Shown piece after piece: positions 10,866 through 51,252 of a DNA stretch of 64,000 bases; within the stretch, counting starts at the first letter, position 1; the number at the start of each line of letters is the position of its first letter. A model generated the notes under the pieces. The model saw nothing but the letters and a program-made list of their open reading frames with translations. It was not told where the DNA came from and made no database searches. Source of the stretch: Ignavibacteriota bacterium. Lineage in GTDB: Bacteria; Bacteroidota; Ignavibacteria; Kapaibacteriales; UBA2268. Where the stretch lies: NCBI GenBank assembly GCA_019637995.1, contig JAHBUQ010000001.1, forward strand, positions 1,103,589 to 1,167,588, written 5' to 3'. The translations under genes were made by a program, and so were the position numbers.

Positions 10866-11290
10866 TGCATTTCCTTTTTATTTTATACTAATTTAATAAA
10901 AAAAAACTTAAAATACAATTATTTTAATTTTATTTAATACAATAAGTTATAATCTCACTTCATTAGCATCACTTAAATATCAAGGATTCCTTAGCTATTT
11001 ACTACCACAGAATACCATATATCTTAAGGCTGTATTCTTCGGAAAATTTAAAAAAAGTGCTTTTTGAGTTTTTTTTCTCTGCCGCATCTAAAATCTATTG
11101 CAATATTTTGAAATTCATCTCTTATACCAATAAAAACTACTCCTTATTGAAGCATCTTCAAAATTGTACCTGTCTTATCCTGAAATAGTTTGACATAAAA
11201 CCGGAGCAAAAGATGTCAAATAAGAAAAAATTTCCAATTTTTTTCGACAGGCTGTGAGAGAATTTTTAAAAAAACAACATTTGAGAAATA

Positions 11291-11332
11291 TTAAAAATCA
11301 AATCCCCCGAGCTTACTTACGAGTCGGGGGAT
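11291..11332 (-). terminator. Rho-independent terminator of the 11349-16199 gene. A 9-bp stem (ATCCCCCGA / TCGGGGGAT) with a 13-nt loop is followed on the minus strand by TTGATTTTT.
   Basis: Perfect GC-rich inverted repeat 17 nt downstream of the stop, followed by a T-tract in the transcribed orientation. Confidence 0.6.
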
Positions 11333-11348
11333 TAGTAAAATATAGAAG

Positions 11349-26120: not shown

Positions 26121-26684
26121 ATGAAAAATTTTAATAAATATAGCGACAACGATTTAATTCAAATAACGGCAAATTCCGGTGAGCCGGAAAAATCTGCGGC
26201 TTTTTCTGAATTGTATAATCGCTATGCAAATAATATTTATCTGTATTGCAGGAAAATTTTCGGTGATGGCACTTTTGCAGAGGATATTTTTCAGGATACT
26301 TTTTTACAACTACTTAAATGTATTGAAAATAAAATATATATTGGAAATGTGCAGGGGTATTTACTTAAAACAGCACGCAATTTATCACTGAATTTCAGGC
26401 GTAACCAAAGAGCTGAAATGGTAGAATTTGATGATTTCAGAGCAAATATTGACGATAACAGCTACGAACTTAAAGAACTTTCCGAAATGATTGATTCTGC
26501 TCTGGAGTTACTGCCTGAAGAGCATAAAGAAGCATTTATACTTCAATCTTATCAGGGACTTAGCTATAGTGAAATTGCAACACTAACCGACGTACCGCTT
26601 TCAACTGTCCGCAACAGAATTGTAAGGGCAAAAGCAAAATTAAGAGAAATTCTGGCTCCAATGATTAAGGAGGAAAAATTATGA
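26121..26684 (+). CDS. ECF-type (sigma-70 family, group 4) RNA polymerase sigma factor, 187 aa. Module 1.
   Basis: Region 2-like FSELYNRYANNIYLYCRKIFGD..AEDIFQDTFLQLL and region 4-like LSYSEIATLTDVPLSTVRNRIVRAKAKLR helix-turn-helix. A candidate TGAAAC-N16-TGTCTA promoter sits at 26077-26104. Confidence 0.85.
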   Translation: MKNFNKYSDNDLIQITANSGEPEKSAAFSELYNRYANNIYLYCRKIFGDGTFAEDIFQDTFLQLLKCIENKIYIGNVQGYLLKTARNLSLNFRRNQRAEMVEFDDFRANIDDNSYELKELSEMIDSALELLPEEHKEAFILQSYQGLSYSEIATLTDVPLSTVRNRIVRAKAKLREILAPMIKEEKL

Positions 26685-27919
26685 AAAATTATGATACATA
26701 CAGCGAGTTGATTTATCTTGTAATTGATGGGGAAGCAAGTGATGCTGAAAGAACTGCTTTCTATTCAGCACTTACCAAAAGCACCGAATTACAAAATGAA
26801 TTTCAAACTGCTATGAAGTTTAACAGAGCGGCTGAGAGTTATCCGAAAAAATCAACTGTTCCGGTGGCAGTTACTGATAAATTATTCAGCAAAGCCGGCT
26901 TGACATATATCCCCAAAGATGCGGCTATAGGTGCTGCAGCCGTTACAAAAGGAGCAATTGTAAAAAGTGGTATCTTTAGTAATGTTATGAGCAACTCAAT
27001 CAGTAAAATTGGCTTTGCTGTTATTGGAATGATCCTTGGTGCCGGAATAATGTATTTACTGAATGATAATTCCGAAATTATCGCTGCCGGAAGTCAGCCC
27101 AATAATATTGACAACAGATTTATCAAATTCGCAGAACCTGAAAAAGCAATTCCAATAATGAGTGCAAATAATGTTGATGAAATTTCATTTACTAAAAGCA
27201 TCAAACGTAACAAAATTGCATCTAATAATTCAGGAAAAATTCTAACAGAGGATGTTGGAATGGAAGATGAAAAATTTGAGAATATTCCTCATCTTAAAGA
27301 TATATCAGAGATATCAAATATTTCAAATAGTAATGAATATTTTCACAATTTGAGTAAATCTAATATTAATTACGAGAGATTTAATAAGATGATTTATGAA
27401 AATAACATCCTGAATAAAAACAACATATTTACATTCTTTGATAATCTGGAAATCTCTTTGGAAAATTCAATTCCGTGGTTTGTTCCTGAAGCATCAGTAT
27501 CACCAAAATCTTATAATAAATTCAACAATTTGGGCTTAAGAGTGTTATTTAAGGCAAATGATTATTTCAGGACCGGAATTTCAATAAATCAGTCCACATT
27601 TTTTGCAGAGTTTATTCAAAGTGAAATGGATGGGAATATTTACAATTATCGAATTCAGCCAAATTTAACAACGGTTTCAAGTGAAATTTTAATTAATTTG
27701 ATAAATTCGGAAGTGTTGGTGCCGTATATTCAGCTTAGTGTGGGAGCTAATCAGGCAGGGATTGTTTTAAGTCCGGCAATGGGTATTGAGTACAATGTTG
27801 TAAATTCTTTATCAATTTATTTCAGTGGTACAATGGATTATTTTAGATTTATACAAAACGACAACTGGTTCGATACTCAAAAATTCAGACTGAATTACGG
27901 TATAAATCTCAAATTTTAA
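26681..27919 (+). CDS. Anti-sigma-like membrane protein, 412 aa. It has a cytoplasmic N-domain, a single TM helix, an N/S/K-rich linker and a C-terminal predicted 8-strand OM beta-barrel-like domain ending in a beta-signal (..YGINLKF). Module 1.
   Basis: The start overlaps the sigma stop (ATGA) and is preceded by AAGGAGGA. The TM segment is IGFAVIGMILGAGIMYLL. The last ~130 aa show 8 alternating-hydrophobic stretches and a terminal Phe with hydrophobics at -2, -4 and -6. Confidence 0.5.
   Translation: MKNYDTYSELIYLVIDGEASDAERTAFYSALTKSTELQNEFQTAMKFNRAAESYPKKSTVPVAVTDKLFSKAGLTYIPKDAAIGAAAVTKGAIVKSGIFSNVMSNSISKIGFAVIGMILGAGIMYLLNDNSEIIAAGSQPNNIDNRFIKFAEPEKAIPIMSANNVDEISFTKSIKRNKIASNNSGKILTEDVGMEDEKFENIPHLKDISEISNISNSNEYFHNLSKSNINYERFNKMIYENNILNKNNIFTFFDNLEISLENSIPWFVPEASVSPKSYNKFNNLGLRVLFKANDYFRTGISINQSTFFAEFIQSEMDGNIYNYRIQPNLTTVSSEILINLINSEVLVPYIQLSVGANQAGIVLSPAMGIEYNVVNSLSIYFSGTMDYFRFIQNDNWFDTQKFRLNYGINLKF
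27138..27265. repeat. 128-bp tract (coding AIPIMSANNVDEISFTKSIKRNKIASNNSGKILTEDVGME) that is ~98% identical at nucleotide level to 31436-31563 in the paralogous anti-sigma gene
   Basis: Side-by-side reading shows three mismatches in 128 nt. The flanking sequence of the two genes is only 20-50% identical at protein level. Confidence 0.7.
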
Positions 27920-27934
27920 TTAGGAGAAATTGCT

Positions 27935-28396
27935 ATGAAATTACTTTTGAAAAGTATATTGCTTTTAATGATAATAATTATTTTCAGTTCTTGCAAAGAT
28001 ATACTTTCTACAGAACCGAGATATGATAAAAAAATCATAACTGAAAATCTATCACCTGCTGATTCACTCAAACTTCTGACCTTACCCGATGTGGACTTAG
28101 GAATTATTAGAGTAAAAGCTATGATTTCAAGGAATATCATTATTGCCAATAATTCTGATTTACACGATATAGAAATATATTCAATTGATAATGATAATAA
28201 AACGGGAATATTTACTTACGGTTTTCCTGAAGGAATGCCATTTGTTATTAAGTCGTCTTCAAGTACTGAACTTTTCCCTGCAATCGAAGTAACATTCATT
28301 GCTGACCCAATTGTACCGGGAATTTTCTATGACACATTATACATAAATCAAAACGAAGAAATGTTTATTCCAATAAGAGTGCAAACAAGATTTTAA
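27935..28396 (+). CDS. Small lipoprotein, 153 aa, with a single Ig-like (DUF1573-like) domain. Module 1.
   Basis: Signal peptide plus lipobox-like IIIFSSC, with AGGAG upstream. The core LPDVDLGIIRVKAM..NNSD resembles the C-terminal domain of the 349-aa lipoprotein in module 2. Confidence 0.6.
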   Translation: MKLLLKSILLLMIIIIFSSCKDILSTEPRYDKKIITENLSPADSLKLLTLPDVDLGIIRVKAMISRNIIIANNSDLHDIEIYSIDNDNKTGIFTYGFPEGMPFVIKSSSSTELFPAIEVTFIADPIVPGIFYDTLYINQNEEMFIPIRVQTRF

Positions 28397-28416: not shown

Positions 28417-30111
28417 ATGAAAAAGTTCACATTGTATTTAGTTGCTTTCTTTGCGATTTCCTCACCGCTTTTAGCGCAAAAGTTTAATCATCCCGAACTA
28501 CAGTCGGATACATTAAGAACATTTGAAAGTAAAAAGAATACTGTCAGCAATATTCAATTCGGTGCAACAAATTATGGGATAAGTAATTGTTATTTCAATT
28601 TCCCTGAATTACGGGGTGTAATTTGGCCCAGAAATAGTGATATTACTTATTCTTTTGGAAGCGGGTTGTGGATTGGCGCTAGTAAATATCATCCTGATTC
28701 AAATAAAACAAGAAACATGGTTCTAATAACATATAACCCGAACTCAGGGAAAAGTTGGGCTGTGCCAGGGAGAATAGAAGACGGAAATGAAGTCAAATAT
28801 GATTTGAAGAAGAAATACAGGACATTTTTAAGTACAGAATACAACACATACACAGGCGAGCCTTTTGATAGTGATTACGAATATAATTGGTCTCACTGGA
28901 TTTCAAACGGAGAGAAAAAGTACAGTCATGGAGTATTTTTAAATGAATACGAACACGAAAATTCAAAGCGAAACCGCGATAATTATCTTAATGGTCCTTT
29001 AATTGTATCCGATGAAGATATTGTAACTACCTTCAAGGATACAGACTTAAACTTTTATGAGGGTGGCTCAGCAAACAGACTGGCACAAGGTTATCCCTTG
29101 AGTTTACAAATGGAATCATCCATTTATTCTTGGAGCGATGATTTAATGAAAGATGTGATAATTCAAAGATATGTAATTGAAAATAAGTCCAATGACACAC
29201 TTAAAGACTGTTGGATTGGGAATTATAATGGTGTTGGGATTGGACTTATTTCAAAGTTTGATAACAAAGAATGGGGGACAAAAGATAGATTGATTTACTA
29301 CGAAGAAGATAAAACATTGAATCTTTTTGTTGCTTGGTCAGAAAATTCTGAGGTCATAAATGGTAAAGGATTTGGTTACTTTGGTGTATCCTTGCTTGAA
29401 ACTCCGGCAGTTGATAGCGATGGCTTTTTGAGAAATGACAAGCTAATATATCAAATGGATGAACAGATTGGATTAAAGTCATTGTATAATTGGCACATCA
29501 AGAATGATCCAAGATACGATGAACAAAGATATGACATATTAACATCAAACCAAATTTACAAGTCAGATGATTATCTTGATGGTGGAAGAGTTATGACATC
29601 TACCGGTCCATTTCACTTTCGTCCGGGAGAAAAGGCATACTTTACTGTATTGATAGCATTTGCACTTCCTGCTAAAGGAGGCGAAGCTGACGGTACAAAA
29701 GAAGATATTGCAGGTATCGGCGGCAAAATCAACAAGGGCGATAATCCAATTAAACAAAGCAACGAATTATCACTTATTGATAAAATCAAATTTGCAAGAG
29801 ATAAATATTATAATGGCTTAGTTACAAAAATATTGGAATCTGAAGTTCGCAGAAATTCAGAATTGAGTGTCTATCCCAACCCCGCTACAGATTTCATTAC
29901 AATTCAATTAAGCAAAAAAGGGCTTCAGCCCTTTGCAGCGACTGGTAAAGTGCAAATATTTGATGCGTTGGGTTTGGAAGTCATATCCACCCCGTCAGCT
30001 GCGCTGACACCCACGGGTGAGGGGAATTTAAGAATTGATGTTTCGCATTTACCAGCAGGAGTTTATTTCATACGTGTTGGTAATAAGGTAGGCAAATTTG
30101 TGAAGAAGTAA
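28417..30111 (+). CDS. Secreted protein of unknown function, 564 aa, with a T9SS C-terminal sorting domain. Module 1 cargo.
   Basis: Signal peptide MKKFTLYLVAFFAISSPLLAQ and AAGGAG upstream. The last ~80 aa, LSVYPNPATDFITIQLS...GVYFIRVGNKVGKFVKK, form a Por secretion tail. Confidence 0.7.
   Translation: MKKFTLYLVAFFAISSPLLAQKFNHPELQSDTLRTFESKKNTVSNIQFGATNYGISNCYFNFPELRGVIWPRNSDITYSFGSGLWIGASKYHPDSNKTRNMVLITYNPNSGKSWAVPGRIEDGNEVKYDLKKKYRTFLSTEYNTYTGEPFDSDYEYNWSHWISNGEKKYSHGVFLNEYEHENSKRNRDNYLNGPLIVSDEDIVTTFKDTDLNFYEGGSANRLAQGYPLSLQMESSIYSWSDDLMKDVIIQRYVIENKSNDTLKDCWIGNYNGVGIGLISKFDNKEWGTKDRLIYYEEDKTLNLFVAWSENSEVINGKGFGYFGVSLLETPAVDSDGFLRNDKLIYQMDEQIGLKSLYNWHIKNDPRYDEQRYDILTSNQIYKSDDYLDGGRVMTSTGPFHFRPGEKAYFTVLIAFALPAKGGEADGTKEDIAGIGGKINKGDNPIKQSNELSLIDKIKFARDKYYNGLVTKILESEVRRNSELSVYPNPATDFITIQLSKKGLQPFAATGKVQIFDALGLEVISTPSAALTPTGEGNLRIDVSHLPAGVYFIRVGNKVGKFVKK
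29872..30111 (+). repeat. T9SS-tail-coding block, ~90% identical at nucleotide level to 35231-35469 at the 3' end of the module-2 cargo gene. It contains an internal perfect hairpin, AAAGGGC-TTCA-GCCCTTT, at 29917-29934.
   Basis: Direct comparison of the two 3' ends. The bodies of the two proteins are unrelated. Confidence 0.7.
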
Positions 30112-30159
30112 ATCTGTTGAATGTTAAATGTTATTGAGTTGAATGTTTAATCCGTCTTC

Positions 30160-30190
30160 GCAACAAAGGGCTTCAGCACTTTGCAATAAG
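30160..30190 (+). repeat. Non-coding relic of the T9SS-tail-coding block (GCAACAAAGGGCTTCAGCACTTTGCAATAAG), about 25 of 28 nt matching 35268-35298
   Basis: It lies 50 nt after the stop of the 28417 gene and matches the SNKELQPFAA-coding segment of the 34132 gene. Confidence 0.5.
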
Positions 30191-30206
30191 ATTAAGTAGC
30201 CAAAAC

Positions 30207-30250
30207 AGATGGACTACACCTCGGAGGTGGAGTCCATCTTGCTTTTTATT
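30207..30250 (+). terminator. Long-stem hairpin terminator. A 15-bp stem (AGATGGACTACACCT / AGGTGGAGTCCATCT, one mismatch) is followed by TGCTTTTTATT. The stem is conserved with the hairpin at 34054-34088.
   Basis: Read directly. T-tract follows. Confidence 0.6.
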
Positions 30251-30509
30251 AATCCCAGAAATCCTTTAATCCGAATAATCTCTGATTCAGAAAATGTTGA
30301 AAAACTATAATTTTAAATATTGAAAATAATTTGTGACTTTTTATTCCTAATTTACGTTAATTATTTATGAAAGTTGTACTTTTATAAAAATTATGAATAC
30401 TGAATAACAAAAATATAGCGATAATGATTTAATTAAAATTATCAGAAGTGGTGAAGGTTACTCAGTTGACTATTCCTTCAACACTCTTTATGAAAGGTAT
30501 TCTGCTAAG

Positions 30510-30989
30510 TTGAATTTATTTTGTGTATTCAAATCAAAAAATCCACTTGATGCTGAGGAAATTTTCGAAGATACCTGGCTCAAGTTTCTTGATAGAATCA
30601 GGCAAGGAAAAATACCTGAATCAGTTCTGTCATATTTATTTGCAATTGCAAGAAATCTTGCGATAGACAGGTATCGTGCTGAAATTTCAAAGAAAACAAT
30701 TACAATTGAGTATCGGGATTATTTGAATTTTGAAGACGACTATAGTCAATTATCAACTGAAAATTTGGTTGATGCTGATGAACTTAAGGAGGTTATTATG
30801 GGCGTTCTTTCAAATATGGACGACATTTACAGCGAAGTTTTTATTATGCAGTGGTTTGGCGGGTTAACTCAAAGGGAAATTTCCGAAACACTGAATATTG
30901 GTTTGTCAGCAGTAAAGATGCGAAGTCATCGTGCCATGAAAGAAGTTATTAAATATGTTAAGCCAATTTATAAGAATTATGATGAGTAG
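30510..30989 (+). CDS. ECF sigma factor paralog, module 2. The 5' end is disrupted by an in-frame TAA at 30405-30407, downstream of an ATG at 30393. The longest intact ORF starts at TTG 30510 and would lack part of region 2.1. Possible pseudogene.
   Basis: The frame 30393-30989 reads MNTE*QKYSDNDLIKIIRSGEGYSVDYSFNTLYERYSAKL-MNLFCVF.... This aligns with the module-1 sigma MKNFNKYSDNDLIQI...FSELYNRYANNIYLY. Region 4 (LTQREISETLNIGLSAVKMRSHRAMKEV) is intact. Confidence 0.6.
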   Translation: MNLFCVFKSKNPLDAEEIFEDTWLKFLDRIRQGKIPESVLSYLFAIARNLAIDRYRAEISKKTITIEYRDYLNFEDDYSQLSTENLVDADELKEVIMGVLSNMDDIYSEVFIMQWFGGLTQREISETLNIGLSAVKMRSHRAMKEVIKYVKPIYKNYDE

Positions 30990-31005
30990 TTCGGAGGATA
31001 TGAAA

Positions 31006-32196
31006 ATGGAAAATATTGATAGATTTACCAAATATTATTCCGGGGAAATGAATCAAATTGAAGAGGAATTATTTTTTTCTGAATTAGCTTTAGATAATTC
31101 AGTCAGAGATGAATTTAAAACTTTTTATATGATAAATAGTTCCTTATCATCAATTGTCAGTTCCTATAAACCAAGTGAAGAAAGTAAAGCCAAGCTTTTC
31201 AGCAAAGCCGGATTGGTTTATTCACCGGCTGCCATAACGGTAGCGGCTCTGACTGCAACAAAAGGCACAATAATCAGTCAGATTGCGACTTATACAATGG
31301 GCAAACTCGGTTTAATTTTGTTTGGTTTAATTATCGGCGCCGGACTGATGTATCTGCTAAATTCTCAACCTGAAAATATTGCTTTAAATAATCAACCGGC
31401 TAATAATGAGGAAAGAATCATTCAAATCTTAGATTCTGAAAAAGCAATTCCAATAATGAGTGCAAATAATGTTGATGAAATTTCATTTACTAAAAGTATC
31501 AAACGTAACAAAATTGCATCTAATAATTCAGGAAAAATTCTAACTGAGGATGTTGGAATGGAGGAGAAAGAAGAACTTCACACCCATAATATACAAATTA
31601 AAAAGTGTCAAATACCTGATGTTCATAATTTTGAAGGAAATATAATTCCAGAATATAAATTAAATTCTGAAATTAAAAATACAGAGTATTATCAAAAAAT
31701 TTCAACAGATTTTAAAGAATTAGGTTTATCAGTTGAAACAAGATACTCTACATACTGGAATATGGTAAATGAAAATGTTCAGCCAAGTGAATTTTCGATT
31801 TTTAATAATATTGATATATTTGTTTATAAAGAAGTCTTGCAAAATTTGCTTCTGGGTGCAGGTGTGCGTCAGGAAACGTTTTATGCTAAATATAACTCTT
31901 TCGAGAATGGACGGGATTTTATATATGAGCAACAACCAAATCTTACAAATTTTGAGTTAGCAATTCGGTATTTCCCATATAATATTGAATTTTTCAAACC
32001 GCTTATTCAACTGAACTTAGGCGGTGGTAACTATGGATTCACATATCGTGGAGCAATTGGAAGTGAAATTAATCTGATAGACAAATTTTCAATATTATTA
32101 ACTATTGATTATGCCACATTCAATTTTTTTCATAAAGACATAAAGAACAATTCGGGTAAAGTTGGAATTAATTACGGAATAAATTATAAATTTTAA
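31006..32196 (+). CDS. Anti-sigma-like membrane protein paralog, module 2. Same architecture as module 1: N-domain, TM helix LGLILFGLIIGAGLMYLL, linker, and an 8-strand beta-barrel-like C-terminus ending ..NYGINYKF.
   Basis: I place the start at ATG 31006, giving MENIDRF.... This is 7 nt after GGAGGA and matches the module-1 MKNYDTY start. The ORF track begins at 30955, inside the sigma gene. Confidence 0.5.
   Translation: MENIDRFTKYYSGEMNQIEEELFFSELALDNSVRDEFKTFYMINSSLSSIVSSYKPSEESKAKLFSKAGLVYSPAAITVAALTATKGTIISQIATYTMGKLGLILFGLIIGAGLMYLLNSQPENIALNNQPANNEERIIQILDSEKAIPIMSANNVDEISFTKSIKRNKIASNNSGKILTEDVGMEEKEELHTHNIQIKKCQIPDVHNFEGNIIPEYKLNSEIKNTEYYQKISTDFKELGLSVETRYSTYWNMVNENVQPSEFSIFNNIDIFVYKEVLQNLLLGAGVRQETFYAKYNSFENGRDFIYEQQPNLTNFELAIRYFPYNIEFFKPLIQLNLGGGNYGFTYRGAIGSEINLIDKFSILLTIDYATFNFFHKDIKNNSGKVGINYGINYKF
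31436..31563. repeat. Partner copy of the 128-bp near-identical tract (see 27138-27265)
   Basis: Same basis as 27138-27265. Confidence 0.7.
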
Positions 32197-32202
32197 ATAA
32201 AT

Positions 32203-32946
32203 TTGGAGAGAACAATGAATACTAAAATCATTTTATCATTAGCATTGCTTTTGCTATTTTTGACATCCTGTGAAGACATTGTCAATTCAGAAAAGAACAT
32301 TAAGAAAACTGGATACTTGTATAATAAGGTTCTTAATAATCAGGAAAAAAACGTATTAATGCCATTGAAAGTTGGTAATATGTGGCTATATGAAGTCAAA
32401 CAATTTGACTCATCCGGTACAATGATTAACGAATATATTGACTCAATCGAAGTCTTAGAGAAAATCAACTTCAGAGGCGAAACATGGTTTAGAGTCAGAA
32501 TGATAGATATGGGTTCTACTTGGAATTCAATTCTGACTAATACAGATAAGGGGCTATATCGTGCAGACGAGAACACCACACTTGATTGTAGATTTATAGT
32601 AGCTCAATATCCTGAGAATCGAAGTCAAATTATTGCCCTTCATGAAGAAAATGTGATGATTATGTATTTTGACGGTCAGAAAGATGTTATTGATACAGTT
32701 ACAACTCAATATTTAATTGAATTAAATGCAAATTATACTGCTTCTTTTAAATCTGCAAATTATCCTGCACGGGAGTATTCTACTTACTGGAGGGCATTAG
32801 AGTTGGTTGATAGTAAAACTTTGCATAAAGTTGATGTTTTTGTTCCAAACATAGGTCTTTTTGAGCATAAACGCTACCGCTTTGCCGGAGGCAGAAGGTA
32901 TGTTGAAACCCACTATAAATTAGTAGCAACTAATTTAATAAAATAA
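32203..32946 (+). CDS. Lipoprotein, 247 aa, paralog of the N-terminal domain of the next gene. Module 2.
   Basis: Lipobox FLTSCED. The leader TAAATAAATTTGGAGA is identical to that of the next gene. Shared blocks include CEDIVNSEKNIKKT/CDDIVNSDSNIKKT and MPLKVGNMWLYEV/MPLKVGYKWLYSV. Confidence 0.6.
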   Translation: MERTMNTKIILSLALLLLFLTSCEDIVNSEKNIKKTGYLYNKVLNNQEKNVLMPLKVGNMWLYEVKQFDSSGTMINEYIDSIEVLEKINFRGETWFRVRMIDMGSTWNSILTNTDKGLYRADENTTLDCRFIVAQYPENRSQIIALHEENVMIMYFDGQKDVIDTVTTQYLIELNANYTASFKSANYPAREYSTYWRALELVDSKTLHKVDVFVPNIGLFEHKRYRFAGGRRYVETHYKLVATNLIK

Positions 32947-32965
32947 ATAAATTTGGAGAAACATT

Positions 32966-34015
32966 ATGAAATCGAAAGTTATATTAATGCTAATCACAGT
33001 GCTTGTTATTATAACAGCTTGCGATGATATTGTCAATTCCGACAGTAACATCAAGAAAACGTCGCTTGATTATAGTAAGGTACTTGATAATCAGGAAACA
33101 GGTGTCATAATGCCACTGAAGGTGGGTTATAAGTGGCTGTATTCAGTTGATAAAGTAAATGAAGAAAATGTCGCAATTAGTAATCGTATTGATTCTATTG
33201 TCGTTCTGCGTGAAGTAATGTTGGAAAATGAAAAATGGTTTGAAGTATATTTCCCAATGTTTTCAAGAGATTACAATGTCCTGATGACCAATACCGAAAA
33301 AGGTTTGATGATTCATTGCGAGCAATGCTTGGAAAAGAAATTTCTTTGGGCAGAATATCCACAAAATGGCAGTCTTTTCTATAGCGGAAGGAAATTAATT
33401 CAGTTGAAAGATTCCCAAGGAAATGTAATTGGTCAAGATTATGTACCATTAGGCAAAGAGTCGCAGAGTTCCGGTGTTAGTTTACAAAATGGAAAAAGCT
33501 TTTCAACGGTAAATTATGTCTGTTATGCAATCAATCAAAACAAAATGCAAAAAGAAGTTTTCCTTGGAGATGAGCATTTCTCTCCGGATTTTGGTTTAGT
33601 TGCCGGATTTACTAAAGCGTTAGATGGAATGCTTGGAGAGCAGTATGAGTATTTAGAGTTTTCTAATATTAGCGAAGTAAATCAATGTATTTATGAAGAA
33701 ACCATCAACCTTGGCGACATACAAATTGGAAAGGTTCATTCATTCACAAAAGAAATAACAAATACCACTGACAAAACTTATAGTTTGAAAGGAATAGCAA
33801 TAATACCGGCTACTGAAATTATCAGCTTCGGAAAAATTACACCTACAATGCACGACTGGCTTAACTTCCCAATCAGACAAAATCAAAAGCTTTCTATTGA
33901 AATTAAAGTTACACCAGACAAATTAGGAGATTTCTCTACATCAGTAATGATATTTCATTCAGAAATGCATAATTGTTTTTATAGAATTTATATTAACGGT
34001 ACTTGTGTAGAGTAG
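32966..34015 (+). CDS. Lipoprotein, 349 aa: N-domain paralogous to the 32203 gene plus a C-terminal Ig-like domain related to the 27935 lipoprotein. Module 2.
   Basis: Lipobox IITACDD. The C-terminal INLGDIQIGKVHSFTKEITNTTD... is DUF1573-like. Confidence 0.6.
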   Translation: MKSKVILMLITVLVIITACDDIVNSDSNIKKTSLDYSKVLDNQETGVIMPLKVGYKWLYSVDKVNEENVAISNRIDSIVVLREVMLENEKWFEVYFPMFSRDYNVLMTNTEKGLMIHCEQCLEKKFLWAEYPQNGSLFYSGRKLIQLKDSQGNVIGQDYVPLGKESQSSGVSLQNGKSFSTVNYVCYAINQNKMQKEVFLGDEHFSPDFGLVAGFTKALDGMLGEQYEYLEFSNISEVNQCIYEETINLGDIQIGKVHSFTKEITNTTDKTYSLKGIAIIPATEIISFGKITPTMHDWLNFPIRQNQKLSIEIKVTPDKLGDFSTSVMIFHSEMHNCFYRIYINGTCVE

Positions 34016-34053
34016 GAAATTAGATATAATCTGTATCGCAGATTTAGTCAAGC

Positions 34054-34088
34054 CAGATGGACTCCACTTACAAAGTGGAGTCCATCTG
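34054..34088. repeat. Perfect 15-bp-stem hairpin (CAGATGGACTCCACT-TACAA-AGTGGAGTCCATCTG). The stem sequence is shared with 30207-30239. No clear T-tract follows, so this may be a REP-like element or a terminator.
   Basis: Read directly. It lies between the second lipoprotein gene and the cargo gene of module 2. Confidence 0.45.
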
Positions 34089-34131: not shown

Positions 34132-35469
34132 ATGAAAACCAAAATTTTATTGCTTTGTTTATTTGTTATGATTTATAGCGAAAGTTCTTCCCAGCTTATA
34201 AAATGGGATACGTTAACAACCGACTTTGATTATTTCAACAGACAACATTTCCATACTATAAATGAAACAAGAGAATACATATATTCTTTCAATTTAGGTT
34301 CCATCGTTAATAATCTATTAGTTATTTCAGAGTATGATATTTACAAAAAAGATTTCTCAGAACAAATCTCATTCAAATTAGATCAGATGTATAATCCAAA
34401 TGAATACCGTCCTAATGATTGCATTATGACTGAAAACAACATTATTTATGTAGTTGCTGATTCAGGATATATTTTTCAAAAAAATATTTTTAACAAAGAA
34501 TGGACTTCAAGAAAAATTATTGAAGAAAGTGCTTTGATTTACAATATTGCTTTCAAGGATTCTTTATTTGGTATTATTTCAAATTATCCGGATTATGAAA
34601 ACCTGATACCTGAGCTGCATTATACTGAAGATGGAGGAAATAATTGGTCAAAATTTGAAAATCAAATTGAGAACGAAAAGCCATTTTTAATTACAAGTTT
34701 TAGATTTTTTCAGGATACAATGATTGTAATTACTTATGAACCGGAAACAAAAAATCGAAAGATATATTTCAGTTTTAACTCGGGATATAATTGGGATTAT
34801 ATCAATGAATTCCCAAAATTTAGTTCATTAGAAAGACATAATAGTATTTATTTCAAAAATGGAAAGTTATGGGTTGCTTCGATAAGGTCAGAGGAATTTG
34901 TTTTTTCTGATAATTTTGGTCTAACATGGACGAAAGTAAATGAAGTTAATTCTAATGAAGGGATTCGGGGTATCAGGAATATAACTTTTAAAGATAATTT
35001 AAATGAAGGTTTTGCACTAAATCCATACGGTGTTTATTATACTACAGATGGTTTAAACTGGGAATTTGACAGAAATCATGAAGATAAGCAACTAGAAAAA
35101 TTGAACTTAACGCAATTCAATTACAAAGATGAAATTTATCTTATACAAGATAGCGCTGCATTAAAATATGATGGTCTGATTACTTCAATTAAACAAAATG
35201 ATGTTTCAAAAATTGGAGGCATGAGCGTTCATCCCAACCCCGCTACAGATTTCATCACAATTCAATTAAGCAACAAAGAGCTTCAGCCCTTTGCAGCAGA
35301 AGAAAAAGTGCAGATATTTGATGCGTTGGGTTTGGAAGTCATATCCACCCCGTCAGCTGCGCTGACACCCACGGGTGAGGGGAATTTAAGAATTGATGTT
35401 TCGCATTTACCAGCAGGAGTGTATTTCATTCGCATTGGTGAGCAAGTGAGTATGTTTGTAAAGCACTAG
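34132..35469 (+). CDS. Secreted BNR/beta-propeller-like protein, 445 aa, with a T9SS C-terminal sorting domain. Module 2 cargo.
   Basis: Signal peptide MKTKILLLCLFVMIYSESSSQ. BNR-like motifs YTEDGGNNWS, SDNFGLTWTK and YTTDGLNWE. The tail MSVHPNPATDFITIQLS...GVYFIRIGEQVSMFVKH is ~90% identical to that of the 28417 gene. Confidence 0.7.
   Translation: MKTKILLLCLFVMIYSESSSQLIKWDTLTTDFDYFNRQHFHTINETREYIYSFNLGSIVNNLLVISEYDIYKKDFSEQISFKLDQMYNPNEYRPNDCIMTENNIIYVVADSGYIFQKNIFNKEWTSRKIIEESALIYNIAFKDSLFGIISNYPDYENLIPELHYTEDGGNNWSKFENQIENEKPFLITSFRFFQDTMIVITYEPETKNRKIYFSFNSGYNWDYINEFPKFSSLERHNSIYFKNGKLWVASIRSEEFVFSDNFGLTWTKVNEVNSNEGIRGIRNITFKDNLNEGFALNPYGVYYTTDGLNWEFDRNHEDKQLEKLNLTQFNYKDEIYLIQDSAALKYDGLITSIKQNDVSKIGGMSVHPNPATDFITIQLSNKELQPFAAEEKVQIFDALGLEVISTPSAALTPTGEGNLRIDVSHLPAGVYFIRIGEQVSMFVKH
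35231..35469 (+). repeat. Partner copy of the T9SS-tail-coding block (see 29872-30111)
   Basis: Same basis as 29872-30111. Confidence 0.7.
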
Positions 35470-39995: not shown

Positions 39996-40955
39996 CTATC
40001 CCTTAATTGCTTTCACTTTTTCGGTTAATTTTGGTAATATATCGAATATATCACCTACTAAACCATAGTCAGCAACTTTGAAAATCGGTGCATCTTTGTC
40101 TTTATTTACTGCAAAAATTATTTTCGAGCTTGACATACCTGCAAGATGCTGAACTGCACCGGAAATACCGCATGCAACATATAATGTTGGAGATACAGTT
40201 TTACCTGTCTGACCTACCTGCTCAGAATGTGGTCTCCAGCCGGCATCAACAACTGCACGTGAAGCACCTACAGCACCGCCAAGAGCAGAAGCAAGATTTT
40301 CGATCAGATGATAATTTTCAGGTCCTTTGAGTGCTCTACCACCTGAAACTACAATGTCAGCTTCAAGAACGTCGAGCTTGCCTTCATTTCGGAGAATATT
40401 TGTAACCTTAACTTTTGCTTCAGCAGTTGAAGTTTCTGCATTTATGCTTTCAACATTCATACCTGAAACAGGATTTTTCACCGAAGTAAATACGTTAGGT
40501 CTTAATGATAATACTTTGTTTGATGTATTAAACATAGATGTAATTATTGCTTTTCCTGCGTAAACAGGCTTTTGTACACTAATTTCCCCATTTTCAATTT
40601 TTATGCCAACAACATCTGCGACATATCCTGCACCTATACCTACTGAAACTCGCGGTGCTAATTCAAGTCCTGTCGCATTAGCTGAGAACAGCACTGTATC
40701 GAATCCTTTTGATTTGATAACACGATTTAAAATGGAGGCATGTTGGGATGAAGAATAACTTGAATCACCATCAAAATTAACGAGTATAGCATTTTTCAAT
40801 CCATATTCTTCTGCTGTTTTTGCTTGTTCGGCAGTTCCACCGATTAAAATCCCCGTAACATCATCGCCAATTAATGATGCCGCAGAAATAAGCTCATAAG
40901 AAACTCTTTTAAGAGAACTTTTGTTAGGTTCGAGATAAACTAAAATTTTGCTCAT
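39996..40955 (-). CDS. etfA: Electron transfer flavoprotein alpha subunit
   Basis: N-terminal MSKILVYLEP, the FAD-binding C-terminal LYVACGISGAVQHLAGMSSSKIIFAVNKDKDAPIF, and a length of 319 aa. Confidence 0.9.
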   Translation of the reverse strand: MSKILVYLEPNKSSLKRVSYELISAASLIGDDVTGILIGGTAEQAKTAEEYGLKNAILVNFDGDSSYSSSQHASILNRVIKSKGFDTVLFSANATGLELAPRVSVGIGAGYVADVVGIKIENGEISVQKPVYAGKAIITSMFNTSNKVLSLRPNVFTSVKNPVSGMNVESINAETSTAEAKVKVTNILRNEGKLDVLEADIVVSGGRALKGPENYHLIENLASALGGAVGASRAVVDAGWRPHSEQVGQTGKTVSPTLYVACGISGAVQHLAGMSSSKIIFAVNKDKDAPIFKVADYGLVGDIFDILPKLTEKVKAIKG

Positions 40956-40989
40956 AATTTATATATTTCCTTTTTACTTATTTACTTAA

Positions 40990-41733
40990 TTATATTACTT
41001 TAGCATCTTCTTGGAGACTGCGAATAATTTCGGCAATATCGGCATCTGAATCTCCTAAAATTTTACCGACTCTTTGTTTGCTTGGAAGTTCCATACCTAT
41101 AACAGAAACAGTAGATTCAACCGATTTGGCATCAATTTCATCAATAGGTTTCTTTTTAGCTTTCATAATATCGGGCAATTTTGGATAGCGTGGTTCATTA
41201 AGTCCTTTCTGGCAACTTATCAGGCATGGCAATGTAGCTTCAACTGCTTCTTTACCGCCTTCTATATCACGCTCCGCTTTTACTTCATTTCCAATAACTT
41301 CAAGCTTTGAGACAACTGAAATCGAAGGAATATCAAGCAGACCTGCAACCATAGAAGGAACTTGGAATGAATCAAAATCAACACTTTGGCGACCTGCAAA
41401 TATTATATCATAAGATACTGTTTTTGCATATTCTGCAAGATTGAAAGCAGTCTGATATGAATCCAGATTTTCACCTTTAATAAATACCGCATTATCAGCG
41501 CCCATTGCAAGTGCTGTTCTCAGGATTTCACTTGATTCAGCGGAACCTACTGTAACTGCTGTAACTGTACCGCCATTTTTTTCTCTAAGTCTTAGTCCTT
41601 CTTCAAGTGCAAATTCATCATAAGGATTTAGAATGTACTTAACACCTTTGCTATCAATGTTTTTACCGTCAACACCAACAAAAATTTTGGTCGCTGTATC
41701 GGGTACTCTTGATACAAATACAAGAATATTCAT
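40990..41733 (-). CDS. etfB: Electron transfer flavoprotein beta subunit
   Basis: MNILVFVSRVPDTATKI...; length 247 aa; sits immediately upstream of etfA. Confidence 0.9.
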   Translation of the reverse strand: MNILVFVSRVPDTATKIFVGVDGKNIDSKGVKYILNPYDEFALEEGLRLREKNGGTVTAVTVGSAESSEILRTALAMGADNAVFIKGENLDSYQTAFNLAEYAKTVSYDIIFAGRQSVDFDSFQVPSMVAGLLDIPSISVVSKLEVIGNEVKAERDIEGGKEAVEATLPCLISCQKGLNEPRYPKLPDIMKAKKKPIDEIDAKSVESTVSVIGMELPSKQRVGKILGDSDADIAEIIRSLQEDAKVI

Positions 41734-41880
41734 TAAATTACTCCGATTTTAGAATCTAAATAAAATATTGTTTATATAATAATTAAAGTTAAACGAATTT
41801 ATAGTTAATTATTTTATTTTCTCACAATTTTCTTAAATTATCAAAAATATATCAGGGTAGTCAGTTGTTGATATTTGTTA

Positions 41881-41923
41881 ATGATATAAATACATCTCGT
41901 CAGTTGTTATTACTGACGAGATG
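41881..41923 (-). terminator. Hairpin (12-bp perfect stem CATCTCGTCAGT / ACTGACGAGATG, 7-nt loop) between the PaaZ-like gene and etfB. Terminator or attenuator candidate.
   Basis: Perfect inverted repeat 28 nt after the 41951 stop. In minus sense it is followed by TATTTATATCAT. Confidence 0.5.
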
Positions 41924-41950
41924 ACATACAATCACAAACAAATTCAAAAA

Positions 41951-43990
41951 TTAGATTTTCTTTGCTACAAGAGTAAGTATCGTTGCTTGGGTTACGAGCT
42001 CATTATTTTGATTAAAGACTTCGACATCCCATTTCACAACGCCATGAGGCGGCATTCCTTCTTTATCTTCTTTAGCTGTTTTTTCGAGTACAGTCAAATT
42101 TACTCTGATTGTATCACCGACATAAACCGGCTGGGTAAACCGAAGTTCGTCTATCCCATAATTTGCAAGTACAGGACCTTTCTTTGGGTCAACAAACAGA
42201 CCGGCAGCAGCCGACATGACAAAATATCCATGTGCCACCCTGCTTGTGAAAAAAGTTCCTTCAAGAGAGGTTACATCGGTATGTGCATAGAAATTATCGC
42301 CGCTTACTCCTGTAAAATTAACAATATCAGTTTCAGTTACTGTTCTGCCATGAGTTGATAAAGTATCTCCAATTTCCAGCTCTTCAAAATATTTACGGAA
42401 CGGATGTATGACATCTTCCCTACGCTCGGCACCCTTCTGCCACCTGTTACTAATTTTTGTTATGGTTGTTGGATGTCCCTGAATTGCAGTTCTCTGCATA
42501 TAATGCGTAACAGACCTGATGCCTCCAAGCTCTTCACCACCGCCAGCTCTGCCGGGACCTCCATGTACAAGATGTGGCATAGGCGAGCCGTGACCGGTAG
42601 ATTCCTTTGCACAATCCTTATTTATAATAATAAGCCTTCCGTGATATGAAGCAGTTCCGAAGAAAAGCTCTTTAGCTACATCATTATCGGCAGTAAAAAT
42701 TGAGCCTACAAGACTTCCCTGACCTTTCTTTGCCAGTATTGCGGCTTCTTCAGTTGTTTTATAAGGAATAATTGTGCTGACAGGTCCAAATGCTTCAATA
42801 TCATGGACTTCGTTTGCTGTGAAGGGATTATTACAATATAACAATGTAGCAGGGAAGAATGCTCCGTCTTCAGCATTTCCACCTACAATATCGTAGCTGT
42901 CGAGAGAACCGCTGACTAGTTCACAGCTGCGCATCAGCTCTTCTACTTTTGAACGAACTTCTTTAACTTGGGGCTTCCCTGCGAGTGGTCCCATTCTGAC
43001 ATTTTCTATATCCGGATTACCTATAATATTTTTGGCAAGTCTTGATTTCAGTGCATTTATGACCGGTTCGACCATATTTTCAGGAACAATTGCCCTACGA
43101 ATTGCAGTACATTTCTGCCCTGCTTTGACAGTCATTTCCCTAACAATTTCCTTAATATAAAGGTCAAATTCTTCTTTATCTGGTGTTACATCTATTCCAA
43201 GAATTGAGCAGTTCAATGAATCTGCTTCCATATTAAATCTTACAGAATTTTCCAAAAATGCCGGACTTGATTTCAGCATTTTGCCTGTAACTGCCGAGCC
43301 TGTAAATGTTACAACATCCTGGCATGTAACATGCTCCAGTAAATCACCGGCACTGCCTGTAATGAGCTGCAATGCACCTTCCGGGAGGATTTTTGAAACA
43401 ATAATTTCTTTCACCATAAGTTCTGTCAGATAAGCAGTAAGTGATGCCGGTTTAACAATTGCAGGTAAACCTGCAAGAAGGGAAGGTGAAATTTTCTCAA
43501 GCATTCCCCAGATTGGGAAATTAAATGCATTGATATGAATAGCTGCCCCTTCAAGCGGAACGCAGATATGATGTCCAATAAAAGTTCCTTTTTTGGATAT
43601 TACCTCAGCATTTCCCTCCAATAGAAACGGCTCGTCCGGTAATTCCCGTCTACCTTTGCTTGCGTAAGTAAATAGAGTACCAATTCCTCCCTCGATATCA
43701 ATCCAAGAGTCAGTCCTTGTAGCACCTGTGGCTTTCGATAGTTCATAGAATATTTCTTTTTTGCTTAACAAATGCTGTGCTAATGCCTTAAGCATTCTTG
43801 CTCTTTCGTGGAATGTCATTTTCCTTAAAGTTGGACTTCCTACCTCGCGGGCATACCTTAGCATATCCTTAAAATCAACGCCTTTACTTGATATTTCACC
43901 GATTGGCTCACCGGTTACAGCATGAAATAGCATAGTACCGCTTCCTTCACCCTCTATCCATTGACCGCTTGCATAGCTCTTTAATTTCAT
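41951..43990 (-). CDS. Bifunctional aldehyde dehydrogenase / MaoC-like (R)-specific enoyl-CoA hydratase (PaaZ-like), 679 aa
   Basis: N-terminal ALDH-superfamily domain (…GAAIHINAFNFPIWG…) and C-terminal hotdog/MaoC domain (…HGYFVMSAAAGLFVD…GDTIRVNLTVLEK…). Size and domain order match PaaZ. Confidence 0.7.
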   Translation of the reverse strand: MKLKSYASGQWIEGEGSGTMLFHAVTGEPIGEISSKGVDFKDMLRYAREVGSPTLRKMTFHERARMLKALAQHLLSKKEIFYELSKATGATRTDSWIDIEGGIGTLFTYASKGRRELPDEPFLLEGNAEVISKKGTFIGHHICVPLEGAAIHINAFNFPIWGMLEKISPSLLAGLPAIVKPASLTAYLTELMVKEIIVSKILPEGALQLITGSAGDLLEHVTCQDVVTFTGSAVTGKMLKSSPAFLENSVRFNMEADSLNCSILGIDVTPDKEEFDLYIKEIVREMTVKAGQKCTAIRRAIVPENMVEPVINALKSRLAKNIIGNPDIENVRMGPLAGKPQVKEVRSKVEELMRSCELVSGSLDSYDIVGGNAEDGAFFPATLLYCNNPFTANEVHDIEAFGPVSTIIPYKTTEEAAILAKKGQGSLVGSIFTADNDVAKELFFGTASYHGRLIIINKDCAKESTGHGSPMPHLVHGGPGRAGGGEELGGIRSVTHYMQRTAIQGHPTTITKISNRWQKGAERREDVIHPFRKYFEELEIGDTLSTHGRTVTETDIVNFTGVSGDNFYAHTDVTSLEGTFFTSRVAHGYFVMSAAAGLFVDPKKGPVLANYGIDELRFTQPVYVGDTIRVNLTVLEKTAKEDKEGMPPHGVVKWDVEVFNQNNELVTQATILTLVAKKI

Positions 43991-44302
43991 TTGAAATCCT
44001 AATTTTTTTTATTTGACAGAATTGATATTAATAAATTAACGTTGAAATATGAAAAGTGTTGTTAATTTTTTTGAGTTGATTAGGTGTAGTGTGTTGTGGT
44101 TAGAGTTTGAGAATTGAATAATATTGTTTTGAGACAAATTTACAGAAAATGTTATCATCAGGATACTAAAATCACAAATATGAAATCTTAAAATATCATG
44201 GACATTTCATTATGAAATATTTATCTAATGACACAATACTACTTCTGTGCTAAGTCGAAGTGTGACACTTTAATATAATATTTAACAAGTTGCCGGTTTC
44301 AA

Positions 44303-45910
44303 TTACATTCTGAAAATACCAAATCTTGGTTCAGGAATTTCCCGATTTAGTGACATAGATATTCCAAGAGCTATTGCATTTCTTGTGTCGAGCGGGTCAA
44401 TGATTCCATCGTCCCATAGTCTTGCAGTACTGTAGTATGGGCTTGCTTCTTGCTCATATTGCCGAAGAATAGGTTCCTGAATCATACGAATGTCTTCATC
44501 AGTTAGTTTCACACCAGTTTTTTCCAACTGTTTGATTTTGACAGTAGAAAGAACATTTGCTGCCTGCTCGCCGCCCATAACAGAGATTCTGCTATTTGGG
44601 TACATAAATAATAAACGAGGTTTGTATCCTCTGCCACACATAGCATAATTACCTGCACCATAAGATCCGCCGACTATAACAGTAAATTTCGGCACCTGTG
44701 CATTAGCAACAGCGTGAACAAGTTTAGCTCCATCGCGTGCAATGCCTCCATGTTCATATTTTTTCCCAACTATAAATCCTGTTATATTTTGTAAAAATAG
44801 TAATGGGATTTTTCTCATAGAGCATAATTCGATAAAATGGGCTCCTTTTAGACTTGACTCTGAGAAAAGAACACCGTTATTAGCAATAATTCCTACCGGA
44901 TACCCTTTAATTCTTGCAAATCCGGTAATTAAGGTCTTGCCATATTCAGCTTTGAACTGCTGAAATCTACTTCCATCAACAAGTCTGGCAATCACTTCCA
45001 TCATATCAAATTGTTGGCGGAGATTTGCAGGGAGAATGCCATAAATTTCTTTCGGGTCATAGAATGGCTCTTCAGGGATTTCAATATCAAGTTCAAATTT
45101 TCTTTTTTTGTCGAAATTTTCAACAATATTCCGAACGATTTCAAGAGCGTGCATATCATTTTGGGCATAATGGTCTGAAACGCCTGAAATCTTGCAATGT
45201 ACATCAGCACCTCCAAGTTCTTCATCTGTAACTATTTCTCCGGTTGCAGCCTTAACAAGTGGCGGTCCTCCGATAAATATTGTCGCCTGATTTCTGACCA
45301 TAATAGTTTCGTCGCTCATTGCCGGAACATAAGCTCCACCTGCTGTGCAGGAACCCATCACACAAGCAATCTGAGGAATTCCTTCGGCTGACATCTGAGC
45401 CTGATTATAAAATATATTTCCAAAATGCTCTTTATCGGCGAATGTATCGGATTGATATGGCAGAAAAATTCCGCCTGAATCCACGAGATATATGCAAGGG
45501 AGCTTGTTTTCAAGAGCTACAGTCTGAGCTCTTATGTGTTTTTTGATTGTCATCGGGAAATATGTACCACCCTTGACTGTGGCATCATTGGCGACAATCA
45601 TACATTCCCTGCCTTTGATTACACCAATACCGGTAATCACACCGGCAGATGGAGCATCGCCATCATACATATCGTAAGCAGCAAGTGAATTAAGCTCAAG
45701 AAATGGAGTATTTTCATCGCAAAGATTGGCAATTCTGTCGCGTACTAATAATTTACCTCTGTCTGTGTGGCGTTTACGGGCAATTTCCGGACCTCCAAGC
45801 CTGACCTTATCGAGAGTTTCTTTAAGCTGTGAAGTAAGTTTTATCAAATTTTCATGGTTTTCTTTAAATTCAGGCGATTTTGTATTTAATTTTGAATTAA
45901 TTCTGTACAT
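44303..45910 (-). CDS. Acyl-CoA carboxylase carboxyltransferase (beta) subunit, 535 aa; methylcrotonyl-CoA or propionyl-CoA carboxylase beta-like
   Basis: Two carboxyltransferase half-domains: …[30 protein letters not shown]… and …[29 protein letters not shown]…[16 protein letters not shown]…. Confidence 0.85.
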
Positions 45911-46270
45911 TCAAAAAGCTCCGGAAATTTCATAAATAAAAATTCTAAAACGTATTGATTAAAAAAACATTTTCGTTTTCATTAAAACCTTCTGTGATTT
46001 AAAAATATTGAAAAAATAAAAAAAAACTATATTATATAGACATTATACATTTAAAATTTTGTTTATTAATCAAAATTTACTAATTTTAAGAGTTATAAAT
46101 GTGTAAATATGAATATTGTGTTAAAATTTTTGCATTTAGATTACTTGTTATCGTAAAATCATAGAAAATTTTATACCAATTTCATTTTAGAAAAATAATT
46201 TGTAACTTTTTTTGTAAATAATGTGTTATATAATAATATTTTTGTTAATCTTTTTAATGGAGTTTTTTTC

Positions 46271-48790: not shown

Positions 48791-49007
48791 ACTATTACTT
48801 TTTGACTAAATATGACAGCCGGAATAGGTTATATTTCGGCTGTTTTAATAAAAAAGAATATGAAATTGGTAACTTATGCCCTAAGATAATGAATTAGTCA
48901 TAATCTTAGGATGCAAGTTAAACGAAATATTGATTTTATTCGACTATAAATTTATATATATTATTGAAAACAAGAAATTTTTCAAATTAGTTTAAGGAGT
49001 AATTATA

Positions 49008-51194: not shown

Positions 51195-51252
51195 TACTAT
51201 ATTCATCTTAAGAAAATGGCTGTTAATTTTCACATTAACAGCCATTTTTATT

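Follow-up and report, generated by a model that had tools for sequence, protein, structure and literature searches.

Gene conversion as the probable source of near-identical type IX secretion tails on unrelated cargo genes, and the palindromic DNA of their loops

Two unrelated cargo genes of the type IX secretion system (T9SS) end in nearly identical sorting tails in a 64,000-nucleotide (nt) stretch of DNA from an Ignavibacteriota bacterium (assembly GCA_019637995.1, contig JAHBUQ010000001.1, positions 1,103,589 to 1,167,588 of the forward strand), hereafter called the window. This resemblance is probably explained by gene conversion within a mosaic subfamily of tails ending in KFVKM, which is distributed across the genome and includes loops written as palindromic DNA modules. 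These palindromic loop modules are the unexpected part of the finding. The T9SS C-terminal domain (CTD) is usually viewed as a slowly diverging protein signal that is inherited with its cargo, and its tail is usually taken to be cleaved off once the protein has been secreted. Hydrophobic N-termini are visible by eye in the translations of the cargo genes. The genes and tail segments concerned are the following.

28417..30111, plus strand: cargo gene 1 (MBX3042947.1, 564 amino acids (aa)), a T9SS cargo
29866..30108, plus strand: predicted type A T9SS CTD of cargo 1 (aa 485-564), based on PF18962, TIGR04183, an AlphaFold2 model and structure matches
29872..30075, plus strand: high-identity tract, cargo 1 copy, pairing with 35230-35433 (93% nt identity)
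29956..30062, plus strand: 107-nt identical core (equal to 35314-35420), the putative core of the most recent conversion
34132..35469, plus strand: cargo gene 2 (MBX3042952.1, 445 aa), BNR/Sortilin-like propeller with a type A CTD
35230..35433, plus strand: high-identity tract, cargo 2 copy, with the loop-1 module at 35275-35292 (one stem mismatch)

The last 240 nt of the two cargo genes, encoding 80 aa, are 88% identical at the nucleotide level and 86% at the amino acid level, and the BLASTP match between the two proteins is confined to their C-terminal 99 aa (E 5e-47; E > 3 for other segments). An earlier sequence-only reading of this DNA, in which the last ~240 nt were described as about 90% identical on otherwise unrelated proteins, is borne out by these values. 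Positions 29872-30075 and 35230-35433 align without gaps at an offset of 5358, with 93% identity in nucleotides as well as in amino acids over 68 codons. The copies differ at 14 of 204 positions inside this tract and at 29 of 243 over the whole domain; permutation of the 29 mismatches over the 243 aligned nt gave p <= 5e-5 for the longest identical run of 107 nt. A candidate extension of the homology upstream of the tail (YNGL and YDGL; repeat D1 from 29809) was rejected, since both motifs are conserved among the orthologues of the cargo in which they stand and are thus proper to the respective cargo families; the homology of the tails therefore begins at ~29866.

The profiles PF18962 and TIGR04183, for which curated cut-offs of 27 and 23 bits and a match at the extreme C-terminus were required, score 50.1 and 40.9 bits on cargo 1 (aa 485-564; E 3.6e-13 for PF18962) and 45.6 and 34.2 bits on cargo 2. 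The AlphaFold2 model of the cargo 1 tail is a seven-stranded Ig-like beta-sandwich with a per-residue confidence (pLDDT) of 79, and a Foldseek search with this model retrieved 8glk_D (TM 0.64/0.73), 8gl6_D and 8gl8_D, which are substrate CTDs from solved T9SS translocon complexes, as well as the RgpB CTD 7pq4. Judged from profiles and model, both tails are most likely type A T9SS sorting domains. They resemble the PF18962/TIGR04183 type A CTD in their scores above cut-off, their C-terminal position and a sandwich matching solved substrate CTDs, but differ from a plain one in belonging to a lineage-specific ...KFVKM subfamily with two expanded loops encoded by palindromic DNA. The six other T9SS-type tails of the window are 16-36% identical in amino acids and ~50-58% in nucleotides to the pair and to one another.

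Synonymous divergence (dS) inside the tract was compared with that of the flanking homologous codons. In the tails, dS is 0.07 at 29947-30065 and 0.16 at 29872-30075, versus ~1.7 in the remaining homologous tail codons. Identity falls at ~30063-30075 while homology (G-x-x-V-x-x-F-V-K) persists to the stop codon, the last 33 nt of the two tails being homologous and diverged to saturation. Because homology continues past the end of the tract to the stop codon, both genes would already have had a tail of the KFVKM subfamily. Just 3' of the loop-1 palindrome, at 29937-29946, the tail tract is interrupted by a divergent island of 10 nt, which points to two or more events or to a third donor.

The tail tracts are located within two tandem paralogous modules on the plus strand, each with an extracytoplasmic function (ECF) sigma gene, and the anti-sigma-like genes of these modules share a second tract.

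27138..27270, plus strand: second candidate conversion tract, anti-sigma-like gene 1, pairing with 31436-31568
31436..31568, plus strand: second candidate conversion tract, anti-sigma-like gene 2, pairing with 27138-27270

This tract extends over 130 nt with at most three mismatches and encodes 43 identical aa in genes that are otherwise 34% identical. Its dS is 0.12, versus 2.2 in the rest of the gene, and the sigma genes are saturated; the identical run of 61 nt gives p <= 5e-5 by permutation. In an orthologue from a different genome (L166), the patch of 43 aa shows little conservation, so purifying selection offers no explanation for its identity. The N-terminal half of this L166 orthologue is like copy 1 and its C-terminal half like copy 2, which suggests that its own history may be chimeric. 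The direct repeats are 4.3 kb apart in the case of the anti-sigma tracts and 5.4 kb apart in the case of the tails. The cargo parts are unrelated, and their closest orthologues, P0009 and P0129, bear different tails. Taken at the level of sequence, the tail and anti-sigma tracts bear the signature expected when direct repeats that have diverged undergo gene conversion over short tracts, and it would be conversion, not selection, that made the identity.

The pair belongs to a larger group. At least seven further KFVKM-subfamily tails are found in the same metagenome-assembled genome (MAG), five of them on other proteins (P0130, P0131, P0133, P0134 and P0135) and two as orphan open reading frames (ORFs; P0002 and P0007). 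The five carriers comprise a serine hydrolase, a BNR-like protein, two proteins of 479 and 411 aa and a short ORF with a metalloprotease annotation. The search for further cargo genes with this exact tail, which the sequence-only reading had proposed, yields members of the same subfamily, at 71-78% nucleotide identity for the three tails read as DNA. Among tails read as DNA, the nucleotide identity score is 0.89 for the window pair, 0.71-0.78 for the pair versus P0130, P0131 and P0134 (0.85-0.87 over aligned columns), and 0.50-0.54 for unrelated T9SS tails of the same genome; uniform similarity among all tails of the genome, which would have reduced the pair to general family conservation, is not what is found. 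Identical runs of 26-53 nt are common to the window tails and P0130, P0131 and P0134, and the 53 nt that include the window loop-2 palindrome are identical in the P0134 tail on another contig. P0133 and P0134, three genes apart, have the identical segment KVQIFDMLGIEVISTPSAALTPTGEGNLRIDVSHLPAGVYFIRIG in common and differ in loop 1.

An exhaustive HMMER search with the tail gave 195 representatives at E <= 1e-10, on proteins of 88-3735 aa. The idea that the tail is mostly an orphan ORF, derived from a word-indexed protein search that returned only 78-116-aa proteins, was discarded: that search missed the window's own two proteins and was therefore biased, and HMMER shows mostly 400-800-aa cargo. 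Orphan tails are real but a minority, and several apparent orphans are ORFs cut by contig ends. At no fewer than 11 loci in related contigs, neighbouring same-strand tails are 76-95% identical while the 270 nt upstream are 50-56% identical. Mosaic tails are seen in P0002 versus P0007, in the L088 tails, which have the same 3' 190 nt and different loop-1 modules, and in the L001 tails, which have the same 5' 90 nt and a different loop 2.

Several observations on the composition and surroundings of these tails deserve mention. The G+C content of KFVKM-subfamily tails exceeds that of the upstream cargo DNA by 4.5 points (91 related tails, p = 7.5e-5), and in the window the tails have 45-46% versus 35% and 28% for the cargo; in other CTD types the difference runs the other way (-4.4 points). 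GC-rich tails could reflect GC-rich palindromes, biased conversion or foreign origin. In L108, a 790-aa cargo with another tail class (1034-3406) is followed in the same frame by a complete orphan KFVKM tail (3407-3688), a single stop codon standing between the two sorting domains. The 5.7-kb contig L083 carries two degenerate orphan tails, at 1460-1830 (minus strand) and 5243-5537, with a near-identical 110-nt prefix that includes the large non-coding palindrome GTCACACTGAGCG...CGCTCAATGTGAC; they diverge mid-way and match again at the 3' end. The extra tail of L083 lies 260 nt past the cargo stop codon. At 470-1020 of L123, a 305-nt tandem repeat (1.8 copies, 93%) with TCTCTCCTTAGCAAGGAGAGA hairpins adjoins an orphan tail, and the TCTCTCCTTAGCAAGGAGAGA hairpin is also present in L103.

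Tails have also been replaced on their cargo. The cargo 1 family (~550 aa) is conserved, with 129 homologues, and usually follows an ECF sigma gene and a gene for a ~405-aa protein; the homologue in a complete genome follows the same sigma and 405-aa genes. Out of 108 cargo-1 homologues, 28 have "...KFVKM" tails and 80 have a different class. The tree of these 108 homologues requires at least 11 tail-class switches, versus ~25 for shuffled labels, so that tails have been replaced over evolutionary time. Cargo 2 has a single homologue, which lies among tandemly arrayed BNR-like T9SS genes with no sigma gene in the array. This array (L165, 1-11329) holds six complete BNR/Sortilin-like T9SS genes and one cut by the locus edge; it is interrupted by one gene without a domain match and adjoins a region that resembles a prophage, with RusA, DNA polymerase III beta and N6 methylase.

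The low dS of the tracts next to saturated flanks, the tail-class switches and the tail-only identity of neighbouring genes elsewhere together uphold recombination as the source of the identity. Whether the tail moved as a whole is another matter. A recent cassette transfer, in which one gene took the whole tail by duplication and fusion, or both genes took it from a mobile tail-coding element, would be in keeping with these switches, with the complete or degenerate orphan tails directly behind cargo genes (in frame in L108, at 260 nt in L083), with the 110-nt prefix and non-coding palindrome common to the L083 orphan copies, and with tails that are richer in GC than their cargo. We nevertheless regard it as unlikely for the window pair, given that the last 33 nt are homologous yet saturated, unlike what a recent whole-tail transfer would leave, that the anti-sigma genes contain an equivalent internal tract, and that neither a transposase among the scanned window proteins nor terminal repeats were found. 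Of the cassette exchange proposed by the sequence-only reading, recombination is retained, whereas a whole-tail cassette onto which cargo is swapped is not, since the tract ends inside the tail.

The same reading had suggested that cargo genes may be swapped onto a module-specific tail, perhaps recognized by a module-specific partner. In that case, selection for recognition by a partner encoded in the sigma/anti-sigma modules would keep the copies identical. The two most similar tails found do belong to adjacent modules. However, the identity reaches synonymous sites, a 16-bp terminator hairpin (34054-34088) separates cargo 2 from module 2, the array around its homologue lacks sigma genes, the orthologous L166 module has a tail without these loop sequences, and the subfamily occurs on unrelated cargo throughout the genome. 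Such a module-specific tail is therefore abandoned as highly improbable, and gene conversion within the KFVKM subfamily remains the preferred explanation.

The loops of this subfamily bring DNA structure into the picture. Two palindromes are found in the cargo 1 tail.

29917..29934, plus strand: loop-1 palindromic module, AAAGGGCTTCAGCCCTTT, encoding KGLQPF, in the low-confidence model loop 22-33
29994..30008, plus strand: loop-2 palindrome GTCAGC-TGC-GCTGAC, part of STPSAALTP, predicted by folding and located in model loop 50-59

Of the copies of the loop-1 module, that of tail 1 alone is a perfect palindrome, 18 nt long. The 7-bp hairpin AAAGGGC/GCCCTTT that had been noticed earlier is accordingly perfect there; the copies in tail 2 and in the spacer after cargo 1 each have one mismatch, in the same stem pair. 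All three copies make weak DNA hairpins, at -7 kcal/mol in tail 1, -3 in tail 2 and -5.1 in the spacer. The window module appears, from sequence comparison, to be a decayed form of the palindrome with 12-bp arms GCAACAAAGGGC-TTCC-GCCCTTTGTTGC of L081 and L082. The loop-2 palindrome is nested between CCCC and GGGG.

Across the subfamily, loop 1 (between strands 2 and 3) and loop 2 (between strands 4 and 5) contain perfect palindromes with arms of 6-16 bp that belong to many unrelated families. A perfect stem of at least 8 bp is present in 41% of 106 class-I tails and one of at least 10 bp in 22%, while the frequency of stems of at least 8 bp is 5% in shuffles, 5% in the 270 nt that precede the tails of these genes and 8% in other CTDs. 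All 43 placeable hairpins fall in the loops (30 in loop 1, 13 in loop 2), which are the low-pLDDT loops of the model. In the family of the window module (alignment A6), both partners have changed in five of 12 stem pairs, and 85.7% of cells are paired, a score that none of 500 shuffles reached; slid controls are 31-48% paired. The loop peptides vary (KGLQPFA, KVLQHFA, NNGLQPIV) with the pairing kept, and plain tails without loop inserts also exist (L003-L005, P0013, P0027). Some families leave the tails: that of the window terminators (30207-30239 and 34054-34088) is inserted in loop 1 of the L113 and L116 tails and serves as a terminator in L001, and the hairpin after the L083 orphan tail is loop 2 of L001 and of P0006. 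The KGLQPFA module was found in tails, degenerate tails and one window spacer only, in a search that did not extend to the whole genome. No transposase domain was detected in the 27 window proteins scanned, ORFs 39996-59392 lying outside the scan, and no terminal repeats or target duplications are visible at the module edges. We infer that the palindromes are passenger or hot-spot DNA elements without a role in the protein.

The 29917 hairpin and its spacer copy were rejected as intrinsic terminators: the scan flags the hairpin on the minus strand only and the sense strand has no T-run; the true terminator is 30207-30249. A window-wide family of GC-rich hairpins was likewise set aside, as only 16 hairpins were counted versus ~10 expected. 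RNA folding predicts both loop hairpins; the fold of the whole tail (z = -1.66) is hardly better than that of shuffles, and no RNA family of Rfam matched 29600-30500 at E <= 1. Selection at the nucleotide level, by which an RNA or DNA structure in the tail would keep the copies alike without recombination, could draw on the compensatory changes in the modules and on these predicted hairpins. It is nevertheless very unlikely to account for the identity, as the hairpins span ~35 of 204 nt, the whole-tail fold and Rfam results are as given above, and the AT-rich anti-sigma tract bears the same signature with no strong hairpin in the window-wide scan.

A third piece of homologous DNA, in the spacer after cargo 1 (30160-30190), had been interpreted as a degenerate, non-coding relic of the tail block. 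The copy itself is real, but it comprises only 26 nt and corresponds to the palindromic module alone.

30160..30185, plus strand: non-coding copy of the loop-1 module, GCAACAAAGGGCTTCAGCACTTTGCA, 49 nt past the stop codon, in the orientation of the tail

It matches each tail at 24 of 26 nt. The 21-mer AAAGGGCTTCAGCCCTTTGCA has three matches in the window at up to three mismatches (29917, and 30165 and 35275 with one mismatch each) and none is expected from 100 shuffles. The possibility of a longer degenerate tail in the spacer was rejected, since alignments of the flanks are no better than shuffles (p 0.2-0.97) and show no significant similarity to the tail. The spacer copy may be all that is left of an extra tail that has decayed, or the module may have been copied there independently.

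An assembly artefact, that is, a collapsed or chimeric repeat, deserves next to no credence: the source is a MAG and a contig of a second assembly begins just upstream of P0134, but the copies differ at 14/204 tract and 29/243 domain positions and have unique flanks, and for each protein the MBX... and MCW... accession series of NCBI give the same sequence, which makes an artefact unlikely.

Under gene conversion, events may be proposed to have unfolded as follows. Two ancient, unrelated T9SS cargo genes would each have ended in one lineage-specific type A subfamily (...G-K-V-x-K-F-V-K-M), and non-reciprocal short-tract recombination between the tails, 5.4 kb apart, would then have overwritten ~200 nt of one of them, the most recent event covering perhaps ~110-130 nt. 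The same process likely copied ~130 nt between the anti-sigma-like genes of the tandem ECF-sigma modules. The window pair would represent a local extreme of the concerted evolution of the tail subfamily across the genome, in which unrelated cargo tails and orphan tail ORFs share mosaic segments. The tail itself would consist of conserved strand-coding segments with two loops between them, the loops being written as small palindromes kept by compensatory changes; the 7-bp hairpin would be a decayed copy of such a palindromic module, and the spacer piece a third copy of the module alone.

Several points weigh against this course of events. Of the recombination breakpoints that the sequence-only reading had proposed to seek at the tail boundary, the 3' edge lies inside the tail, at ~30063-30075, and the 5' edge falls at the domain start, beyond which there is no homology in any case; a non-homologous junction is possible there. 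Relatives in the same genome share different segments with both copies and give no donor/recipient polarity. The dS of the tract is above zero, and the tract is split by the 29937-29946 island. The hairpins of the window are weak, two of the three copies being mismatched, and the window shows no sign of current activity. Finally, the palindrome statistics derive from metagenome contigs picked by their similarity to this tail, and the dispersed tails of the same genome that were read as DNA are three only (P0130, P0131 and P0134).

The locus in which the pair is found (window G+C content 35%) is organized as follows.

26121..28396, plus strand: module 1 upstream genes (ECF sigma, anti-sigma-like protein, small lipoprotein)
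26121-26684, plus strand: ECF sigma, module 1
26681-27919, plus strand: anti-sigma-like protein, module 1, 412 aa
27935-28396, plus strand: small lipoprotein, module 1
30207..30249, plus strand: terminator hairpin with T-run after cargo 1 (-13.8 kcal/mol, z -6.5)
30408..34015, plus strand: module 2 (ECF sigma, anti-sigma-like protein, two lipoproteins)
30408/30510-30989, plus strand: ECF sigma, module 2
30955-32196, plus strand: anti-sigma-like protein, module 2, 413 aa
32203-32946 and 32966-34015, plus strand: two paralogous lipoproteins, module 2
34054..34088, plus strand: perfect 16-bp terminator hairpin between module 2 and cargo 2

At the protein level, the sigma pair of the two modules is 31% identical and the anti-sigma-like pair 38%. 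Pfam and NCBIfam gave no match for the anti-sigma-like proteins (26681-27919 and 30955-32196), in which an anti-sigma-like region at the N-terminus is combined with a hydrophobic segment and with a C-terminal part whose end, ...NYGINxKF, recalls the terminus of an outer-membrane beta-barrel; their family is kept beside ECF sigma and cargo-1 genes in L166. A promoter motif shared upstream of sigma 1, sigma 2 and cargo 2 was sought and nothing convincing emerged, the promoter scan being at chance level. The terminator hairpins at 30207-30249 and 34054-34088 belong to one hairpin family: the segments 30197-30239 and 34045-34087 are homologous (79%), and in their inner stem a change on one side is compensated on the other (CACCT...AGGTG versus CACTT...AAGTG). 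The window is also rich in large T9SS substrates (2170-16199, 46223-51194 and 60697-63933), which comprise two S8 subtilases carrying FG-GAP or GEVED domains as well as several HYDIN/ASH-type Ig-repeat proteins; their tails are unrelated to those of cargo 1 and 2.

In Porphyromonas gingivalis, rgpA, kgp and hagA contain identical repeats within and between T9SS cargo genes, for which recombination and gene conversion have been invoked (PMC5266723). The window pair is comparable in that identical sequence is common to T9SS cargo genes, with conversion as a source of variation. Unlike the large adhesin region of related virulence genes in P. gingivalis, the sequence concerned here is a sorting signal of ~80 aa on unrelated cargo, genome-wide, with tracts of 110-200 nt. 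As for the modules, Rickettsia palindromic elements (RPE) are small palindromic repeats inserted in frame within genes at structurally permissive sites (PMC10969869), and in Caldithrix, repetitive extragenic palindromic (REP)-like sequences lie downstream of genes (PMC5317091). With RPE, in-frame miniature inverted-repeat transposable elements (MITE) or REP, and SPRITE terminator-like repeats, the tail modules have in common that they are in-frame palindromes at permissive sites and that some families also occur as intergenic terminator-like hairpins. They differ from RPE in size (18-35 nt versus ~150 bp) and from RPE, MITE and REP in that one domain has just two loop positions, for which many families compete, and that the window scans showed neither terminal repeats nor target duplications nor a cognate transposase. 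Literature searches in the library covered returned no paper on palindromes in T9SS tails or on gene conversion or concerted evolution of these tails. A further parallel is the silent-cassette recombination system pilE/pilS of Neisseria, which likewise sets promoterless partial copies, here the orphan tails, beside mosaic expressed copies; unlike in pilE/pilS, the orphan tails give no sign of a donor role and the variation no sign of selection.

More tentatively, and with the odds rather against it, the KFVKM tails of Kapabacteria/Ignavibacteriota might constitute a recombining, semi-mobile DNA family, in which conserved strand-coding segments alternate with interchangeable palindromic modules constrained in structure. 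These modules, also found as intergenic terminator-like hairpins, would be hot spots of insertion or recombination. If so, the tails of a genome would be homogenized, would pass from one cargo gene to another and would persist in places as orphan copies.

In this one lineage, the T9SS signal would evolve in concert across unrelated cargo genes and be repeatedly replaced on a conserved cargo family, with two tail loops that are palindromic DNA conserved as nucleic-acid structure and not as peptide. If general, this behaviour would provide a case, outside Rickettsia, of recurrent in-frame palindromes within coding DNA, and would make tail similarity unfit for inferring cargo relatedness or operon membership. 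It would also mark two CTD loops as tolerant of arbitrary sequence, which could be useful for the engineering of T9SS secretion tags, and would reveal a route by which new proteins gain or renew a secretion signal.

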